From Fidelibacterota bacterium (GTDB lineage: Bacteria; Fidelibacterota; Marinisomatia; Marinisomatales; UBA1611): a stretch of DNA of 64,000 nt. Location: NCBI GenBank assembly GCA_028338895.1, contig JAOLAV010000001.1:9315-73314 (forward strand), written 5' to 3'. The notes beneath the pieces are model-generated. The model had not been told where the DNA came from. It did no database searches and saw only the letters and a program-made list of their open reading frames with translations. The position numbers were made by a program, and so were the translations under genes. Below are positions 37,887 through 63,428 of this stretch, piece by piece (position 1 is the stretch's first letter; the number at the start of each line of letters is the position of its first letter).

Positions 37887-39164
37887 TTAAGCAGAGGCAA
37901 CCCAAAGCCCTATAAATAATAATAAACCCGTAACATTATGCATAATAATAGTCCCCCAATTAGCCGGTTCTAAAAGTCTACTATTATAGTGCTTATATAA
38001 AGTTTGAATAGCTCTAAAACCAAAGTAAGCAGCCAGTAGAGAAATCAAAGATTCAGATGGTAACCTCTCACTCAAGACAAGAGCAATAATACTAAGGAAA
38101 GCTCCAACAACTAAGGAAACATAACCGACTCTCGCTTTTTCGGGTCCAAATACCACAATCAATGTCTTCTTTCCTGTTTGTTTATCACTATCATGATCAG
38201 GGAATTCATTCACATAAACAACAGCAGCAATCAATAGACCAATTGGAATACCGACTAAAAAAGCTTCTGGTAAAAGTTTACCCGTCTGTACTAATGCACT
38301 TCCAGCTACCATTAAAGGACCAAAATTTAAACCTATTAATAGTTCGCCTAATCCTTTTCTAGAAGAAAATTTAAAAGGAGGTGCTGTATAGAATAAACCT
38401 GAAAAGAATCCAACTAGTCCTAACCAAAGTACTGGAAGTCCAGCTTTTTGAATTAAAGGAATACCGACAAGAGCACTAAGCCCAAAAGTTACAATGGCTA
38501 AAGTTAGCATACCTTTTGCTGAGATGAGACCCATTTGAATCCCTCGCCCACCACCATTAAGACCAACATTACTATAATTGTAATTTATTTCATCAGTACC
38601 ACTCACGTGATCGTAGTAGTCATTTGATGTATTTGTACCAATTTGTAGTAATGCACCTCCAAGTGCTGTCAGTGCAAGCCAACCCCACTGAATAGGATAC
38701 CCTGCAAACTTTGCGATAGCTGCTCCAACAAAAATAGGAACAAAAGTTGCGGATAAGAATGGTAATCTCATTATCACAACCCATGTGAATATTTTAGTCA
38801 TTATATCAATTTTGGGACGAACCTCATCAGCTGTTTTATCTTTTAGAGGACTTGTAACACCACAATAGCCTATGTGTTCTCCATCTTTTGATTTAGTTGG
38901 CGTTATTTTAATACGAGATGGTAGCTCACTACCATCCTTATGTAAGAAGACAGTATTGCCTTCCCAGACTCCTTTGTCTACAGCTTCAGCAAGCCAACCA
39001 ACGACATGACCAAGAACGACTTGCCCATCACTAAAATCACTGACTCTCATTTTACCAACAACTTCCTCTTCAGAATAACCAAAAAGGTCAACAGCCCCTT
39101 CACTAAATGTTTCGACTTTACCATCTACATCACATGTTATGACACTTTTCAAATGCTCACTCAT
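37887..39164 (-). CDS. PAS domain fused to MenA-like UbiA-family prenyltransferase
   Basis: N-terminal ~110 aa are PAS-like (DGKVETFSEGAVDLFGYSEEEVVGK...FLHKDGSELP). Then a polytopic domain with NDYYDHVSGTD and NEFPDHDSDKQTGKKTL motifs. Confidence 0.7.
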   Translation of the reverse strand: MSEHLKSVITCDVDGKVETFSEGAVDLFGYSEEEVVGKMRVSDFSDGQVVLGHVVGWLAEAVDKGVWEGNTVFLHKDGSELPSRIKITPTKSKDGEHIGYCGVTSPLKDKTADEVRPKIDIMTKIFTWVVIMRLPFLSATFVPIFVGAAIAKFAGYPIQWGWLALTALGGALLQIGTNTSNDYYDHVSGTDEINYNYSNVGLNGGGRGIQMGLISAKGMLTLAIVTFGLSALVGIPLIQKAGLPVLWLGLVGFFSGLFYTAPPFKFSSRKGLGELLIGLNFGPLMVAGSALVQTGKLLPEAFLVGIPIGLLIAAVVYVNEFPDHDSDKQTGKKTLIVVFGPEKARVGYVSLVVGAFLSIIALVLSERLPSESLISLLAAYFGFRAIQTLYKHYNSRLLEPANWGTIIMHNVTGLLLFIGLWVASA

Positions 39165-39239
39165 TATTCTAAGTAACCTTTCTTAGTTATTAATTATATC
39201 TAAAATTACATAAGTATTTAAAAGCATGAAAAACTAAAA

Positions 39240-40013
39240 TCACACTGGATAAAAAATCGGTCGGCTTGGTGCAGCATCTAGATTCCAATTAGGAATTTGA
39301 ATTTGTAAAAAGCCAAAACTGTCCTCTACCGAATTAGGTATGTATAATAATTCAGATATAGTTTTTCCTTTTTTAAAAAATTCATGATGGTTTCCAAGTA
39401 TTCCACCATCATCGGCTTTATCAATTGAAGGTAAATCTACCAGTAGATGCTGGACAGAGAGTTTGCTTAAGTATTTAATAGCATCTGAAGTAAAAAATGG
39501 AGCTATCTCTAGGTCGTAATTCCGGTTTTTTTTGAGGCTTGTATTAGGCAAAGTCCGAATAATTAAAGAGGATATCTGGTCTTTAATTTTACTCACTAAC
39601 ATTTTCTTTGATATTACAAGATCTGAAGCGATTTTAGCATGATATGAATCTGAAGTATTAGATATATGATCAGGCTTTAAAGAAATTAATTGTGAAGGAA
39701 TAAAACTTCTAGGACAAACATCAACTATTTTAGTTTCACTTTCACTCACATGGCTTATACATTCAGTATGAGTTCCTGTACAATGAATATCAATAGAAGC
39801 AATACCAACATTACAACTTCCACCCTGTTTTATATCACCTTTAAAGCCTCCAATTTGAACAGGATTCAGACTCGATTGTTTAGCCTTAAAAAAAATAGGA
39901 TTTTTATTATCAAAGTTATTTTTTAATGAAAGGTCAATCCCCTGGTCAGTTTTTATAAAATATGACCTGCCTTTATACTCGACCTTAGTCGTTAGCTCTG
40001 TTTCAGATTCCAT
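39240..40013 (-). CDS. putative cyclase / arylformamidase-family protein
   Basis: HCTGTHTECISH resembles HxGTHxDxPxH. DLPSID resembles the family's DxxSxD motif. Confidence 0.5.
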   Translation of the reverse strand: MESETELTTKVEYKGRSYFIKTDQGIDLSLKNNFDNKNPIFFKAKQSSLNPVQIGGFKGDIKQGGSCNVGIASIDIHCTGTHTECISHVSESETKIVDVCPRSFIPSQLISLKPDHISNTSDSYHAKIASDLVISKKMLVSKIKDQISSLIIRTLPNTSLKKNRNYDLEIAPFFTSDAIKYLSKLSVQHLLVDLPSIDKADDGGILGNHHEFFKKGKTISELLYIPNSVEDSFGFLQIQIPNWNLDAAPSRPIFYPV

Positions 40014-40227
40014 TTATTAGTTTAATAATCTCTCCATCGTTGGGAAAACGTTTTAGTGATTTTTTTGAAAAAATTAAATTCTCATCAAGCATGACTTCAA
40101 AAACACCTCCACTGCTAGATATCAAATTAATATCAATATTACTAAATTCGTTTTTTAATTCATGTTCCAAACTGGAAGCATTAGGAAGGTAATTTCACAT
40201 GCTACAATATTCGATAGAGACTTTCAT
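40003..40227 (-). CDS. SelW/Rdx-family selenoprotein (C-x-x-U), 74 aa with in-frame TGA at 40195..40197
   Basis: Manual translation MKVSIEYCSM-U-NYLPNASSLEHELKNEF...SSSGGVFEVMLDENLIFSKKSLKRFPNDGEIIKLI matches the Rdx family pattern (IxYC..[CU]. ... GG.FEV...g.LI.SK....FP). The ATG overlaps the upstream stop (TAATG). Confidence 0.75.
40165..40177 (-). other. candidate bacterial SECIS apical hairpin for the SelW-like gene
   Basis: UUCCA-GUU-UGGAA, with the loop G 23 nt after the UGA. Possible lower stem UAAU/AUUA. Confidence 0.4.
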
Positions 40228-40727
40228 TAATCCTCCATTTTTTGTTCATTAAAAAATTTTAAAATATCTTCAGGGTGACTATGAATATTTACTTCATCAA
40301 AAATATGTACTAAAATTCCATTTTCGTCAATTAAAAATGTTTTTCTAGAAGGGAAAAAATAATATTTATTTACTTTATATGCAGAGCCAGTTGTTTTTTT
40401 GCTATCCGATAAAAAGTTGAAAGGTAGGTTATATTTTTCTTTAAACTTTTTCAGACTACTTTTTGAGTCAAAGCTGATGCCTAATATTGAGATATCAAAA
40501 TCACTAAAATTTTGGAATTCATCACGGAACCCACAGGCCTGTTTAATTCATCCAGGAGTCTCAGCTTTAGGGAAAAAATAAATAACAAGTTTTTCACCTC
40601 TGTAATCTTTTAGATTATGCAGCTTATTATCTTGATCATATAATTTAAATTCAGGCGCATGTTCACCAACTTTTAGAGGTGAGCTAAAAAGTAATGTATT
40701 TAAAAATAAAATCAATAAATTTCTCAT
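40227..40727 (-). CDS. BCP/PrxQ-type peroxiredoxin with selenocysteine at the peroxidatic position (U60), in-frame TGA at 40548..40550
   Basis: The track ORF stops at FFPKAETPG-TGA. The same frame continues IKQACGFRDEF...ILGISFDS...FNFLSDS...RKTFLIDENGILVHIFD to TAA at 40227 and is collinear with E. coli Bcp (FYPKAMTPGCTVQACGLRD...). Start placed at ATG 40727. Confidence 0.8.
40523..40541 (-). other. candidate SECIS hairpin for the Sec-peroxiredoxin
   Basis: CAGGCC-UGUG-GG(UU)CC(G)UG begins 7 nt after the UGA. Possible lower stem AAUU/AAUU. The sequence also encodes the conserved QACGFR, so the structure is unproven. Confidence 0.3.
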
Positions 40728-40792
40728 AAGATTAACTAATTCTAGAACATAAACTAAACTACTATAATCTTTAATAGTATTAAATTTAATTT

Positions 40793-41773
40793 GTGAAAAA
40801 TATAGATATAAAATCAATAGGACGAAGAGTCATAAAAATTGAAGCAGATGCAGTTTCAATGATAGAAAATCGTATTGATGATAAATTTGAATTAGCTGTA
40901 GAGTCAATACTCAATTGCCCTGGTCGCTTGATCATATCTGGAATGGGTAAATCAGGCTTAATAGCTCAAAAGATAGCATCAACTATGGCATCAACAGGTA
41001 CACCCGCTTATTTTGTACACCCAAGTGAGGCAATCCATGGTGATCTCGGTATGATTACAAATCAAGATATCATGATAATATTAAGTAATAGTGGCGAGAC
41101 TTCAGAATTAATTCAAATTTTACCAGCATTAAGAAAAAAAAACGTGACTATTATTGGATTGATTGGAGCAAAAGAATCAACCTTGTCTATCCAGGCCGAT
41201 CTATTCCTAGATACATCTGTTGAAAAGGAAGCCTGCACACTTGACCTCGCACCAACTGCAAGTACTACCGCAACATTAGCCATGGGAGATGCTCTGGCTA
41301 TTTCACTTCTAGAATTACGTGGGTTTAATAAAGAAAACTTTGCTGAGCTTCATCCCGGCGGAATACTTGGTAAGCGTCTTTTATTAACGATAGATCATCT
41401 TATTCACAAAGAGCAGAGTCTACCCTTTGTCACGATCTCAACAACAATTAAGAAAGCATTACTTACTATTTCAGAGAAAGGCTTAGGAGTAACAGGTGTT
41501 TTAGATGAAAAAAATCAGATGATCGGCATTATAACTGATGGTGATATTCGCCGCGGGATTGAAGAAAATTATAAAGATTTTTTTGATCAACCTGCCAAAA
41601 TAATTATGTCAAAAAATCCAAAATCCGTGACATCTGATACTCTCGCAATTTCAGCTTTAGAGCTTATGGAAAAACATTCGATCACTAGCCTATTTGTATA
41701 TTCCAACACGGAATTAAAAAAACCAGATGGAATTATACATATTCACGATATCTTAAAATTAGGTATCCGATAA
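40793..41773 (+). CDS. kpsF: arabinose-5-phosphate isomerase (SIS + tandem CBS)
   Basis: GMGKSG, SNSGET, the C-terminal CBS pair and a GTG start. Confidence 0.85.
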   Translation: MKNIDIKSIGRRVIKIEADAVSMIENRIDDKFELAVESILNCPGRLIISGMGKSGLIAQKIASTMASTGTPAYFVHPSEAIHGDLGMITNQDIMIILSNSGETSELIQILPALRKKNVTIIGLIGAKESTLSIQADLFLDTSVEKEACTLDLAPTASTTATLAMGDALAISLLELRGFNKENFAELHPGGILGKRLLLTIDHLIHKEQSLPFVTISTTIKKALLTISEKGLGVTGVLDEKNQMIGIITDGDIRRGIEENYKDFFDQPAKIIMSKNPKSVTSDTLAISALELMEKHSITSLFVYSNTELKKPDGIIHIHDILKLGIR

Positions 41774-46013: not shown

Positions 46014-47450
46014 ATGGTAAAAAATCGAATTACTCATTTTTTTTCTAAAAGTTTCAAGCTCTATCCGATTCTTATATATTGCATATTCGCTTTTTCTTGT
46101 TCCTCAACACTTAATTACTCAATTAAGAAAAAACGGAGATATTTTCAAAAAAACATAGCCTTAATTCTTGAAGAAGCTAATCTAAATGCAACAATTGGAA
46201 TTAAAATTGTTTCATTAGAAAATAGTAAAACTCTCTATGAGCTGAATAGTAAAAGACTATTAATACCAGCAAGTAATATGAAACTTTTGACTTTCGCCTC
46301 TGCTTTGGAATCACTCGGACCAGAATATTTTTTCAAAACAATAATTGGCAAAGATAAAGAAAATATTGTTTTAATCGGAGGCGGGGACCCTACTCTTACA
46401 AGTTATAACCTTGACTCTTTAGCTAGAGTCATTTCTATTGACAAAACAAATATTGATACTCTTTTTATCAATACTTCTATATTGGATACTTTAGATTATG
46501 GGATGGGTTGGATGTGGGATGAAGGGTCTGATGAATTTTCTGCTCCAATAAGTGCGATTACGGTAGATAATAACTGTATTACTTTTGAATACTCTCCATC
46601 TGAAATGGGAGAACCCGCTCAGATTAACTTCTCCCCTTATTCAAACCTAATTTCCATAGAGAATCAATCTATTACTGTTAATGATACATTAGACTATGAT
46701 CCGTTTAGAATTGATCGAGACTGGGTGAATCAAACTAATAAGTTCATAATAAGCGGTGAAGTTTTAAGAGGGGCTATACCTGATACCTTAAAAAAAAATA
46801 TTTATAACCCCAGAAATTATAATGCAGAGTTGTTTGAACATTTTCTATCCTCGCATGGGGTTAAAACCAATCATATTAAATTTAGTAATGTTGAAAAAAA
46901 AATTGATACATTGATAGTGCATGAGTCTAAACCATTCTGGGCTGTATCAAAAAAAATGATGTTTGAAAGTAACAATCAAATTGCCGAATTATTATTAAGA
47001 AAGATTGGTTATAAAGCATTTGGAATTGGTTCTTCACAATCTGGCAGTAAAGCTATAAAATCATTCCTTTTTAATAAAGTAAATATTGATACTAACTTTC
47101 TACGGATTGCAGATGGATCAGGCTTATCTCGATATAATTTATTAAGTGCAGATCAAATAGTTAATTTGTTAGTTTATATGAATGAAAATCATTTTACTGA
47201 ATATTTCAAAAATAAGTTACCAAATGGTGGCTCAAAAAATAGTGGCCTAGAAGATCGTTTGGTCAATACGGGAGATAACGTTATAGCTAAAACAGGTTCT
47301 TTGTCTGGTGTGTCGACTTTATCAGGCTATATCAACTCTGAAAAACATGGACCTTTAGCCTTTTCTATACTTATAAATGGTTTTACTGGATCGCTAGAAC
47401 CTCTTCGGGAATTCCAAAATCAACTGTGCAGGTGGCTTGTAAAAGGATGA
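46014..47450 (+). CDS. dacB: D-alanyl-D-alanine carboxypeptidase/endopeptidase (PBP4, S13)
   Basis: SxxK (ASNMK), SNN and KTGS boxes. Confidence 0.85.
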   Translation: MVKNRITHFFSKSFKLYPILIYCIFAFSCSSTLNYSIKKKRRYFQKNIALILEEANLNATIGIKIVSLENSKTLYELNSKRLLIPASNMKLLTFASALESLGPEYFFKTIIGKDKENIVLIGGGDPTLTSYNLDSLARVISIDKTNIDTLFINTSILDTLDYGMGWMWDEGSDEFSAPISAITVDNNCITFEYSPSEMGEPAQINFSPYSNLISIENQSITVNDTLDYDPFRIDRDWVNQTNKFIISGEVLRGAIPDTLKKNIYNPRNYNAELFEHFLSSHGVKTNHIKFSNVEKKIDTLIVHESKPFWAVSKKMMFESNNQIAELLLRKIGYKAFGIGSSQSGSKAIKSFLFNKVNIDTNFLRIADGSGLSRYNLLSADQIVNLLVYMNENHFTEYFKNKLPNGGSKNSGLEDRLVNTGDNVIAKTGSLSGVSTLSGYINSEKHGPLAFSILINGFTGSLEPLREFQNQLCRWLVKG

Positions 47451-61239: not shown

Positions 61240-61635
61240 TTATTGAATTCCTTTACTTGTTTTACCAGTCCAGCTCATTATTCCTCCATCCATATTAAAG
61301 GCTTTAAAACCATTCTGATTCAGGAGATTAGTAGCCCTTAGCGAGCGACTACCACTCCGGCAATAAACGATAATCTTACTATCTTTTTGGTCAGCTAATA
61401 AATCGAGTTTTTTTTCTAATATGTTGATTGGAATATTAAATGTATTTGGTATATGTTTTATTTCATGTTCTTTTTTGGTGCGAACATCCAAAAAAAAATA
61501 TCCCGATTGTTTAATTAATTTTTCAGCATCTACGCAAGAGATTGAACCCGATGATGTTTCTTTATTTTGGCAAGCAAGAGGTAATGAAATTATGAATAGT
61601 AAAGAAGCTCTTATTATAAATAAAGGTAAAGACAT
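61240..61635 (-). CDS. rhodanese-domain lipoprotein
   Basis: Lipobox LPLAC. Active-site loop YCRSGSRS. The ATG at 61635 overlaps the upstream stop by 1 nt. Confidence 0.7.
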   Translation of the reverse strand: MSLPLFIIRASLLFIISLPLACQNKETSSGSISCVDAEKLIKQSGYFFLDVRTKKEHEIKHIPNTFNIPINILEKKLDLLADQKDSKIIVYCRSGSRSLRATNLLNQNGFKAFNMDGGIMSWTGKTSKGIQ

Positions 61636-63428
61636 CAAATCGGCCATAAAATAGGCAGAATAATTATTGCCATAATCCAAAAGACTAAGGCAAGCGGAAA
61701 TCCAACTTTAATATAATCACTGAATTTATAGCCCCCAGGTCCATAGACCATCAAGTTCGTCTGATACCCAACGGGTGTGATAAAAGAAGCTGATGCTGCA
61801 AAGGCAACAGCAAATATAAATGCACGTGGATCTAATCCCATTTGAGCTGTTACCGCAATCGCTATTGGAGTCATAATTATTGCCGTTGCAGCATTCGAAG
61901 ATACTTCTGTCAATATAACCGTTAATAAATAAATTAATGCAAGTAATACTCTTGGCTGCCATTCTTCTGGTGCAGATGTAACGGCAAATGTAATAAGTCC
62001 TGCAATCCAATCAGCTGTTCCAGTTTTTTGTATAGCAATACCAACTGGAATTAAGGCAGAGATTAAGATAATAACCTGCCAATTTATAGACTGATAACTT
62101 TCTTGCGGAGTAACAATCCTCAATACAAGGAGTATCATTACACCAAGCATAGCACTCTTAACAATAGGCATAAGTCCTGTAGCTGCAAAACCTATAGTAA
62201 CAAAAATTGCGACAATAGTCATCCACCAAAACTTTTGTTTTTTAAGCTCAGCATCAACTTCTCCAAGAACAATAAAATCACCACTATTAGAGAGTTCACT
62301 TACTTTATTCTTTGGTCCATAAACAAGTAATGTATCGTATGAATGCAAAACTACGTGTGCAATCTTCTTTCTGAAGATTGTACCTTCTCTTCTAATTGCT
62401 AAAATAAATGAACCAAAACGCCTTCTAAAATTACTAGCCTTTAAACTTTTCCCAACCAGATCAGATTTATCAGTAATTAAACATTCTACTACGACATTAT
62501 CATCTTTTTCAAGTTCATCTTGGGTAAGCTTTTCATCCGTCAATAAAGCTACTTTTTCAACCTCTTTCATCCTTAAAAAATTCTCTAATGTCCCTCTGAC
62601 AAATAAAATATCATTTTCTTTGAGCCTAGTTAAACGAATACTATTGGTAATTAATGTATCTCCTCTCAAAATATCAAGAACCATTACGTCATAATTTTTA
62701 TTAACTCCTCTATCCAAACACGTTTTACCAACGAGAGGTGATTCAGGTGTAAGTTTCATTTCAGTTAAATATCCACCTAAATGATAACTCTTTGTCAAGC
62801 TAGATGTTGTTGTTCTTGATGGAAGGATTAAAGGAGCGATGAAAAGAATATAAAGTAACCCCACGCTCATTAAAATAACACCATATTTAAAAAACTCAAA
62901 CATTCCCAAAGGTTCAACACCTGGTGAAGATATATAGATTGAATTAACCAGCAAGTTTGTAGATGTACCTACTAAGGTTAGCGTACCACCAAGAATAGCT
63001 GCATAGCTTAATGGAATTAACATTTTAGAAGGGCTAATTTTATATTTTTGAGCTAATCTAATTGTAACAGGCATAAAAATTGCTACAATCGCTGTATTAT
63101 TTACCACTGCCGAAGCTAATCCAATTGTAAGTAAGTAAACGGCACGTCCTAAGATCATTGATCTATCAGCTAGTCTTCGAACTCGGATTACAAGATACTC
63201 TAGAATTCTTGTTTTTTGCAGTGCTTTACTAATGATAAAAAGAAATGCAATGGTTAAAACAGCTGGATTTGAGAAACCCGAGGTTGCTTCTTCCGGCGTC
63301 AAATATCCAAATAAAAAGAGAATTGATAGCAGTATCATTGCCGTTACATCAATAGAGAATAATTCAGTAACGAATAAAATAAAACCTAAAGCAATTAAGC
63401 TAAGAACAAATACAATATCAGGAGTCAT
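61635..63428 (-). CDS. SLC13/DASS-type anion permease with two central TrkA-C domains
   Basis: Polytopic halves flank a soluble ~200-aa insert with TrkA-C-like repeats. Confidence 0.7.
   Translation of the reverse strand: MTPDIVFVLSLIALGFILFVTELFSIDVTAMILLSILFLFGYLTPEEATSGFSNPAVLTIAFLFIISKALQKTRILEYLVIRVRRLADRSMILGRAVYLLTIGLASAVVNNTAIVAIFMPVTIRLAQKYKISPSKMLIPLSYAAILGGTLTLVGTSTNLLVNSIYISSPGVEPLGMFEFFKYGVILMSVGLLYILFIAPLILPSRTTTSSLTKSYHLGGYLTEMKLTPESPLVGKTCLDRGVNKNYDVMVLDILRGDTLITNSIRLTRLKENDILFVRGTLENFLRMKEVEKVALLTDEKLTQDELEKDDNVVVECLITDKSDLVGKSLKASNFRRRFGSFILAIRREGTIFRKKIAHVVLHSYDTLLVYGPKNKVSELSNSGDFIVLGEVDAELKKQKFWWMTIVAIFVTIGFAATGLMPIVKSAMLGVMILLVLRIVTPQESYQSINWQVIILISALIPVGIAIQKTGTADWIAGLITFAVTSAPEEWQPRVLLALIYLLTVILTEVSSNAATAIIMTPIAIAVTAQMGLDPRAFIFAVAFAASASFITPVGYQTNLMVYGPGGYKFSDYIKVGFPLALVFWIMAIIILPILWPI

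Follow-up and report, generated by a model that had tools for sequence, protein, structure and literature searches.

The window analysed here is a stretch of 64,000 nucleotides (C1:9315-73314 of its assembly) from a single-cell or metagenome genome of the SAR406/Marinimicrobia group, whose current NCBI name is Fidelibacterota. On its minus strand lie two neighbouring genes, one for a PrxQ/BCP-type peroxiredoxin (Prx) and one for a small protein of the SelW family, each of which is crossed by an in-frame TGA. Comparison with the corresponding loci of related genomes leaves us highly confident that both TGAs are selenocysteine (Sec) codons in genuine, selected genes. The two codons are 353 nt apart. 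The source assembly comprises 1.18 Mb in 74 contigs, with 33% G+C. The genes and their TGA codons are located as follows (positions of the window):

40227..40727, minus strand: PrxQ/BCP-type peroxiredoxin gene with a match to AhpC-TSA; ATG at 40727, TAA at 40229-40227; 167 codons including the stop (166 residues and TAA), one in-frame TGA
40548..40550, minus strand: UGA codon 60 of Prx, predicted Sec at the peroxidatic position; TPGU column in orthologues
40003..40227, minus strand: SelW/Rdx-family gene; ATG at 40227-40225, terminal TGA at 40005-40003; 75 codons including the stop (74 residues and TGA); motifs C8-S-M-U11, GGVFEV and RFP
40195..40197, minus strand: UGA codon 11 of SelW, predicted Sec (CxxU); TGA in the SelW match of relatives

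The in-frame TGA codons of Prx and SelW

The family assignment of Prx is given by a match to Pfam AhpC-TSA (PF00578) with an E-value of 9.6e-35 and 119.7 bits at a cut-off of 26. Its best solved relative is the BCP of PDB entry 3drn (2.7e-29), to which the alignment begins at residue 18. The active site reads P53-K-A-E-T57-P-G-U60 and matches the pattern PxxxTxxC/U; the resolving Cys is C65, five positions after U60, and R128 is aligned to the catalytic Arg of 3drn. All of these features, the AhpC-TSA signature, the active-site pattern, the resolving Cys at +5 and the Arg, are common to E. coli Bcp, 3drn and the known Prx selenoprotein family (PF00578, TxxU). Unlike E. coli Bcp and 3drn, however, the Prx of the window would carry Sec instead of the peroxidatic Cys, and it possesses a hydrophobic N-terminal extension of 17 residues. 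Since the score against the NCBIfam Bcp equivalog NF006960 (125.6 bits) is below the cut-off of 140, the protein is filed here as a PrxQ/BCP-type Prx and not as a Bcp equivalog. The SelW protein is matched by Pfam Rdx (PF10262; 9.7e-22, 77.4 bits, cut-off 22.6) as well as by the NCBIfam models NF041051 (SelTWH_Campy; 107.4 bits, cut-off 88) and TIGR02174 (67 bits, cut-off 34.2). With an N-terminal CxxU, a length of about 75 aa and scores above both NCBIfam cut-offs, it shows no material difference from the bacterial SelW/SelT/SelH (Rdx) family.

The orthologues were surveyed by a whole-genome search of 41 relatives, and 20 Prx loci, the window included, were read base by base. The Prx TGA stands at the identical TPGU column in all 20 loci. 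An orthologue of Prx with one TGA was detected in nearly all genomes of the family and in many of the order, a SelW match with TGA in 36 of the 41 related genomes, and CxxU in 19 adjacent SelW orthologues. Most of about 78 homologous Prx loci from other phyla have TPGC at the same column, and a few independent Sec forms of Prx occur in other phyla, e.g. in Acidobacteriota. These results agree with the original prediction, made from the letters of the window alone, that each TGA falls on a redox Cys position: distant homologues have Cys in place of U60 of Prx (TPGU) and of U11 of SelW (CSMU).

Selection on the two halves of each gene was assessed by the proportions of nonsynonymous (pN) and synonymous (pS) differences upstream and downstream of the TGA, with eight pairwise comparisons per gene. 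Downstream of the TGAs, pN ranged from 0.14 to 0.28 and pS from 0.49 to 0.97, values similar to those found upstream. As pN lies far below pS behind the TGA, the downstream parts are no decaying fragments. The idea that the TGAs stem from faulty sequencing or assembly or from nonsense mutations, and that the genes are decaying pseudogenes, has on its side that standard open reading frame (ORF) calling breaks both genes in two, but it is hardly credible against this constraint, against a TGA shared at one column by 20 independent Prx loci and present in 36 SelW loci, and against the conserved and covarying hairpin of SelW described below. Sequencing error in particular, which had been judged very unlikely from the window, is excluded, as is chance, by the recurrence of the TGA in 20 of 20 Prx loci and 36 of 41 SelW genomes.

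A reassignment of TGA to Trp or Gly, the sense meanings it has in codes 4 and 25, with ordinary proteins as products, would likewise account for the existence of in-frame TGAs, and it would fit that selA, selB and selC were not found in the partial assembly. We nevertheless consider it next to impossible, for TGA is in regular use as a stop: it terminates 134 of the 676 ORFs of at least 200 aa genome-wide (about 20%) and 8 of the 44 ORFs of at least 150 aa in the window, among them dacB (47448-47450) and the permease (61635-61637) which had been named as examples. The window is tiled by ORFs of translation table 11 without fragmentation, and the tRNA-Trp has the anticodon CCA. A scan of all TGA-bridged frames in the genome gave convincing read-through only at redox-site Cys positions. 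Furthermore, SelD itself contains a classic Sec site, and relatives possess selA, selB and tRNA-Sec.

SECIS hairpins and the Sec machinery

Bacterial Sec codons are expected to be followed by a hairpin acting as Sec insertion sequence (SECIS). The candidates considered behind the two UGAs are listed here:

40162..40181, minus strand: SelW SECIS hairpin AUG(C)UUCCA-GUU-UGGAACAU, 16 nt behind the UGA; distance from the U of UGA to the loop G 26 nt
40523..40535, minus strand: candidate Prx SECIS mini-hairpin UGUGG-GUU-CCGUG; distance from the U of UGA to the loop G 21 nt
40515..40532, minus strand: alternative Prx hairpin GGGUUC-CGUGAU-GAAUUC with 6 bp, found by folding; 85% paired within the family

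Single-sequence folds behind both UGAs gave energies no better than those of shuffled sequences (z -0.2 to +0.6), and for this reason we relied on comparative analysis. For SelW, 34 sequences from across the order were aligned at the hairpin and evaluated together with shuffled and slid controls. Pairing was observed in 93.6% of the cells, compared to 79.4% in shuffles and at most 54% in the slid controls, and double-change cells numbered 26 compared to 8.1 in shuffles. Compensatory changes were detected at three pairs, including a swap from U-A to G-C in 13 sequences and six pair types at one position. The hairpin is kept in all 34 sequences and the first position of its loop is an invariant G. 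This covariation is solid support for the predicted SECIS hairpin of SelW.

For Prx, the alignment makes a SECIS element plausible. The mini-hairpin is paired in 88.6% of the cells of 28 orthologues, and its loop G is placed at +21 as in most other selenoprotein genes of the genome. Several observations speak against this candidate: its pairs show no covariation, the hairpin is weak (about -4 kcal/mol, z about 0), and some orthologues, which have S-L or G-L for G-F, can form it only in a shifted register. RNAalifold delivered no usable consensus on the Prx alignment. The hairpin at 40515-40532 is retained as no more than an alternative, as it was seen by eye to break down in more distant Prx orthologues. 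In the paralogous Sec-Prx group (loci L141-L152 and C6:8373-8828), a 7-bp stem with a CGNGAU loop and with covariation was found; this SECIS design is of the GGGUUC/GAAUUC type and is unlike the mini-hairpin of the window Prx.

Comparable hairpins with G-rich loops follow the UGA in eight other selenoprotein genes of the genome. Like the fdhF-type SECIS of E. coli, the candidate hairpins of the window are part of the coding sequence and directly follow the UGA on its 3' side; their loops open with G (mostly GU) and are about 21-26 nt away from the U of UGA. The stems are, however, much shorter (5-8 bp) than in the fdhF type and are AU-rich or wobble-rich.

In accordance with the original prediction, the window itself holds no sel genes (no matches to selA, selB or selD), and no tRNAs were found in it either. 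A check that had been proposed, the location of selABCD, was successful in one part. The selD gene was detected on contig C45 (C45:478-1515; 392.7 bits) with a TGA at codon 18 within the motif G-S-G-U-A-C-K. No selA, selB or tRNA-Sec was found in the assembly, which is 55% complete and contains 16 tRNAs; this counts against Sec decoding, but as weak evidence. The same-genus genome G002 and most relatives possess all three. A selA above the cut-off was obtained in 27 of 31 relatives and a tRNA-Sec in 25 of 31, and selB adjoins selA in all five relative genomes checked.

The genome-wide scan for in-frame TGAs, also suggested beforehand, provided no fewer than ten selenoprotein genes from an assembly that covers about half of the genome, namely the pair in the window, SelD and seven others. 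A gene was called a selenoprotein gene when the TGA was found at a redox Cys and a Pfam domain or a curated (seleno)protein model extended across it. The seven additional genes are:

C6:8373-8828: second Prx (paralogue), TGA at the redox Cys
C1:5769-6584: thioredoxin/AhpC-fold gene with W-U-G-G-C, about 2.7 kb before the start of the window
C61:1749-3110: thioredoxin-fold protein with W-U-P-S-C
C42:4888-5829: thioredoxin-fold protein with Y-U-G-T-C; model redoxin_TUGYCR, 100.4 bits
Contig C23: thioredoxin-fold protein with W-U-T-W-C, TGA at the redox Cys
Contig C23 and C8:2731-3858: two UshA_like_PCGU paralogues, one at each place, matched by the NCBIfam (seleno)protein model

The two selenoprotein genes of C23 (the W-U-T-W-C gene and one UshA_like_PCGU paralogue) occupy C23:51755-52807 and C23:4021-5232. 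In the gene at C1:5769-6584 the TGA is followed by a GCGGA-GGC-UCCGC hairpin, and the C-terminal part of the protein resembles an Omp28-related selenoprotein model. An active Sec-decoding trait, which the original prediction had deduced from the pair alone, is supported by the Sec-containing selD and the seven or more additional selenoprotein genes of this genome, together with the selA, selB and tRNA-Sec of the same-genus genome and most relatives.

Other TGA-bridged frames were discarded. For a C-terminal GcvP fragment on C67 and a methyltransferase on C34, the Pfam domain ends ahead of the TGA, which is an ordinary stop. No family was matched by a hypothetical ORF on C18, and a large pair on C2 was judged, without a family scan, to represent two adjacent in-frame genes. 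In G035, a relative of the same order (99% complete; 1.1 Mb in 4 contigs), selA, SelW and tRNA-Sec over the cut-off were not found and the Prx homologues have no TGA. It looks as if this reduced genome has lost the Sec trait.

Three SAR406 single-cell genomes have been listed as 'orphan SelD' organisms (PMC5029168, Table 1). Since SAR406 relatives carry selA, selB, tRNA-Sec and many selenoprotein genes, this label is doubtful, and our analysis indicates that it is probably an artefact of incomplete assemblies. Judged by its machinery genes alone, the present genome would also look like an 'orphan SelD' genome, despite its many selenoprotein genes.

Prx/SelW adjacency, possible coupling and prior reports

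The gene order on the minus strand is Prx (40727..40227), SelW (40227..40003) and a cyclase-like gene (40013..39240). The original prediction that two selenoprotein genes lie side by side was confirmed on this strand, with TGAs at codons 60 and 11, and the TAATG at the Prx/SelW junction and the 11-nt overlap of SelW with the cyclase-like gene are both present. The features relevant for the expression of the three genes are:

40225..40229, minus strand: TAATG, overlap of the Prx stop and the SelW start
40231..40236, minus strand: GGAGGA, Shine-Dalgarno motif for SelW, within the final Prx codons
39240..40013, minus strand: cyclase-like ORF of 257 aa; ATG at 40013, 11-nt overlap with the 3' end of SelW
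40728..40792: divergent intergenic region of 65 nt in the ORF map, between Prx (minus strand) and kdsD (plus strand)

A Sec-SelW gene directly follows Prx in 18 of the 19 other orthologous loci (19 of 20 with the window), and in the 17 orthologues with a placeable SelW ATG the gap from the Prx stop to this ATG is only -4 to +19 nt. An SD-like (Shine-Dalgarno-like) motif usually precedes the SelW ATG in the orthologues; in the genome, SD 5-mers are rare and occur ahead of 4.5% of the long ORFs, compared to 0.8% in controls. Of the 19 other loci, 13 (14 of 20 with the window) have the cyclase-like gene behind SelW, and its start abuts or overlaps SelW. In other families of the order, Sec-SelW is located in a different conserved neighbourhood, and a search for Prx or cyclase genes beside SelW in these families found none; the Prx/SelW pair is therefore specific to the family of the window. 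Two genomes of this same family, G008 and G014, have SelW away from Prx. Across the genomes surveyed, the adjacency is a trait of most of one family and not of SelW in general. The alternative context of SelW (relatives G025-G040, loci L117-L131) has a gene for a secreted protein (about 745 aa) on its upstream side and, downstream, genes for two proteins with lengths of about 260 aa and about 145 aa.

As to the translational coupling that had been proposed for Prx and SelW, the geometry, i.e. the TAATG and the GGAGGA inside the 3' end of Prx, is operon-like and makes it possible. Two findings weigh against a tight link between the genes. The exact TAATG-type overlap is not conserved among the orthologues, only the tight spacing. 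Secondly, a signal-peptide-like N-terminus is seen on Prx but not on SelW, which argues against an interaction of the two in a shared compartment. This hydrophobic N-terminal extension of 17 residues (window 40677-40727, minus strand) resembles a signal peptide; an extension of 17-20 residues is found in every Prx orthologue and is missing from the Prx paralogue, from solved BCPs and from SelW. From this sequence feature, the Sec-containing PrxQ may be exported or membrane-anchored. Should Prx be exported, a role of SelW as its direct reductant would be unlikely.

The following working of the unit can be envisaged. The three genes would probably be transcribed together from the region shared with the divergent kdsD, and the 65 nt at 40728..40792 are presumed from their position to form the promoter region of the three-gene unit. 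The in-frame UGAs would be decoded as Sec by SelB and Sec-tRNA(Sec), with SelB recruited by a small hairpin which starts 13-16 nt after the UGA and whose loop begins with G. In the enzyme, Sec60 of Prx would attack the peroxide, and the selenenic acid so formed would condense with Cys65; a partner with a thioredoxin fold would then reduce the resulting selenenylsulfide, as is general for PrxQ enzymes. As the SelW start overlaps the Prx stop and has a GGAGGA of its own, translation of SelW is probably linked to ribosomes finishing Prx, without strictly depending on them.

What the adjacency means is a separate matter. It is conceivable, and we give this some weight while holding it to be less likely than not, that both are true selenoproteins whose neighbourhood is a lineage-specific accident of gene order, with independent translation and no functional link among Prx, SelW and the cyclase-like protein. 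The occurrence of SelW without Prx or cyclase genes in other families of the order, its separation from Prx in G008 and G014, a strong SD motif of its own and the apparent export of Prx but not of SelW would all be in line with such an accident. On the other hand, the gap of -4 to +19 nt recurs in 19 of 20 loci, over about 13 genera and at roughly 55-70% protein identity, and the third gene is kept in 14 of 20 loci; tight spacing despite saturated synonymous divergence suggests selection for co-expression. A stronger proposal regards the Sec-Prx/Sec-SelW/cyclase-like cassette as a dedicated functional module. In one version SelW would be the specific reductant or chaperone of the Sec-Prx, and in the other the stop/start overlap would tie the output of SelW (and of the cyclase) to Sec insertion at UGA60. 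We consider such a module doubtful. If the second version were true, the locus would be a polarity switch sensitive to selenium supply, and either version would provide a first defined role for a bacterial SelW.

The arrangement and both protein families have already been described, and the locus is an instance of a known pair. In marine metagenomes, Prx (TxxU), SelW-like (CxxU) and SelD rank with the most abundant families of selenoproteins (PMC2398784). In the same study of Global Ocean Sampling (GOS) reads, 'ten Prx/SelW sequences' with two neighbouring selenoprotein genes were reported (Zhang and Gladyshev 2008, PLoS Genet, PMC2398784, section 9); these pairs were traced to a few organisms closely related to each other, and a functional link was left open (PMC2398784). 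The pair was restated under 'Selenoprotein operon' in a 2026 review (PMC13188914). As it is contained in PMC2398784 and PMC13188914, the finding is not new. The pair of the window agrees with the GOS pairs in its families (TxxU and CxxU), in the Sec of both members, in their adjacency and in the marine source. The GOS reads were presented without organism assignment, third gene or SECIS covariation analysis, whereas the pair of the window is placed in one SAR406 family and has a cyclase-like third gene. Our additions are incremental: the assignment to one SAR406 family, the usual cyclase-like third gene, the covariation of the SelW SECIS and the export-like N-terminus of Prx.

The locus reveals no new mechanism; its main value lies in annotation. 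Both genes, and at least eight other selenoprotein genes of the genome, are split or missed by standard gene callers, and the redox metabolism of SAR406 is under-annotated as a result. Furthermore, the Prx/SelW pair, known only from anonymous ocean reads, gains an organism in the form of one family of SAR406/Marinimicrobia.

The cyclase-like gene and its surroundings

The third gene of the unit had been described as belonging to a cyclase/arylformamidase family. Its product is assignable, by sequence comparison, only to the broad Pfam 'Putative cyclase' family, with 34.7 bits (2.5e-8) against Pfam Cyclase at a cut-off of 23.1. A match to KynB (PDB 4cz1; 8.4e-10) indicates distant kinship to kynurenine formamidase, and the score against the arylformamidase equivalog TIGR03035 (43.7 bits) is far under its cut-off of 223. 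In place of the canonical metal motif HxGTHxDxPxH, the protein has the variant HCTGTHTECISH (H-C-T-G-T-H-T-E-C-I-S-H). It is best regarded as a putative metal hydrolase of kynurenine-formamidase-like type.

No terminator-like sites were found at 38800-41000, and in a scan for promoters and terminators the counts did not exceed those of shuffled sequences and no terminator was obtained. On the same strand, 75 nt downstream of the cyclase-like gene, lies a gene for a fusion of a PAS domain and a MenA-like prenyltransferase (37887-39164, minus strand). A promoter-like site is located between these two genes at 39222-39193.

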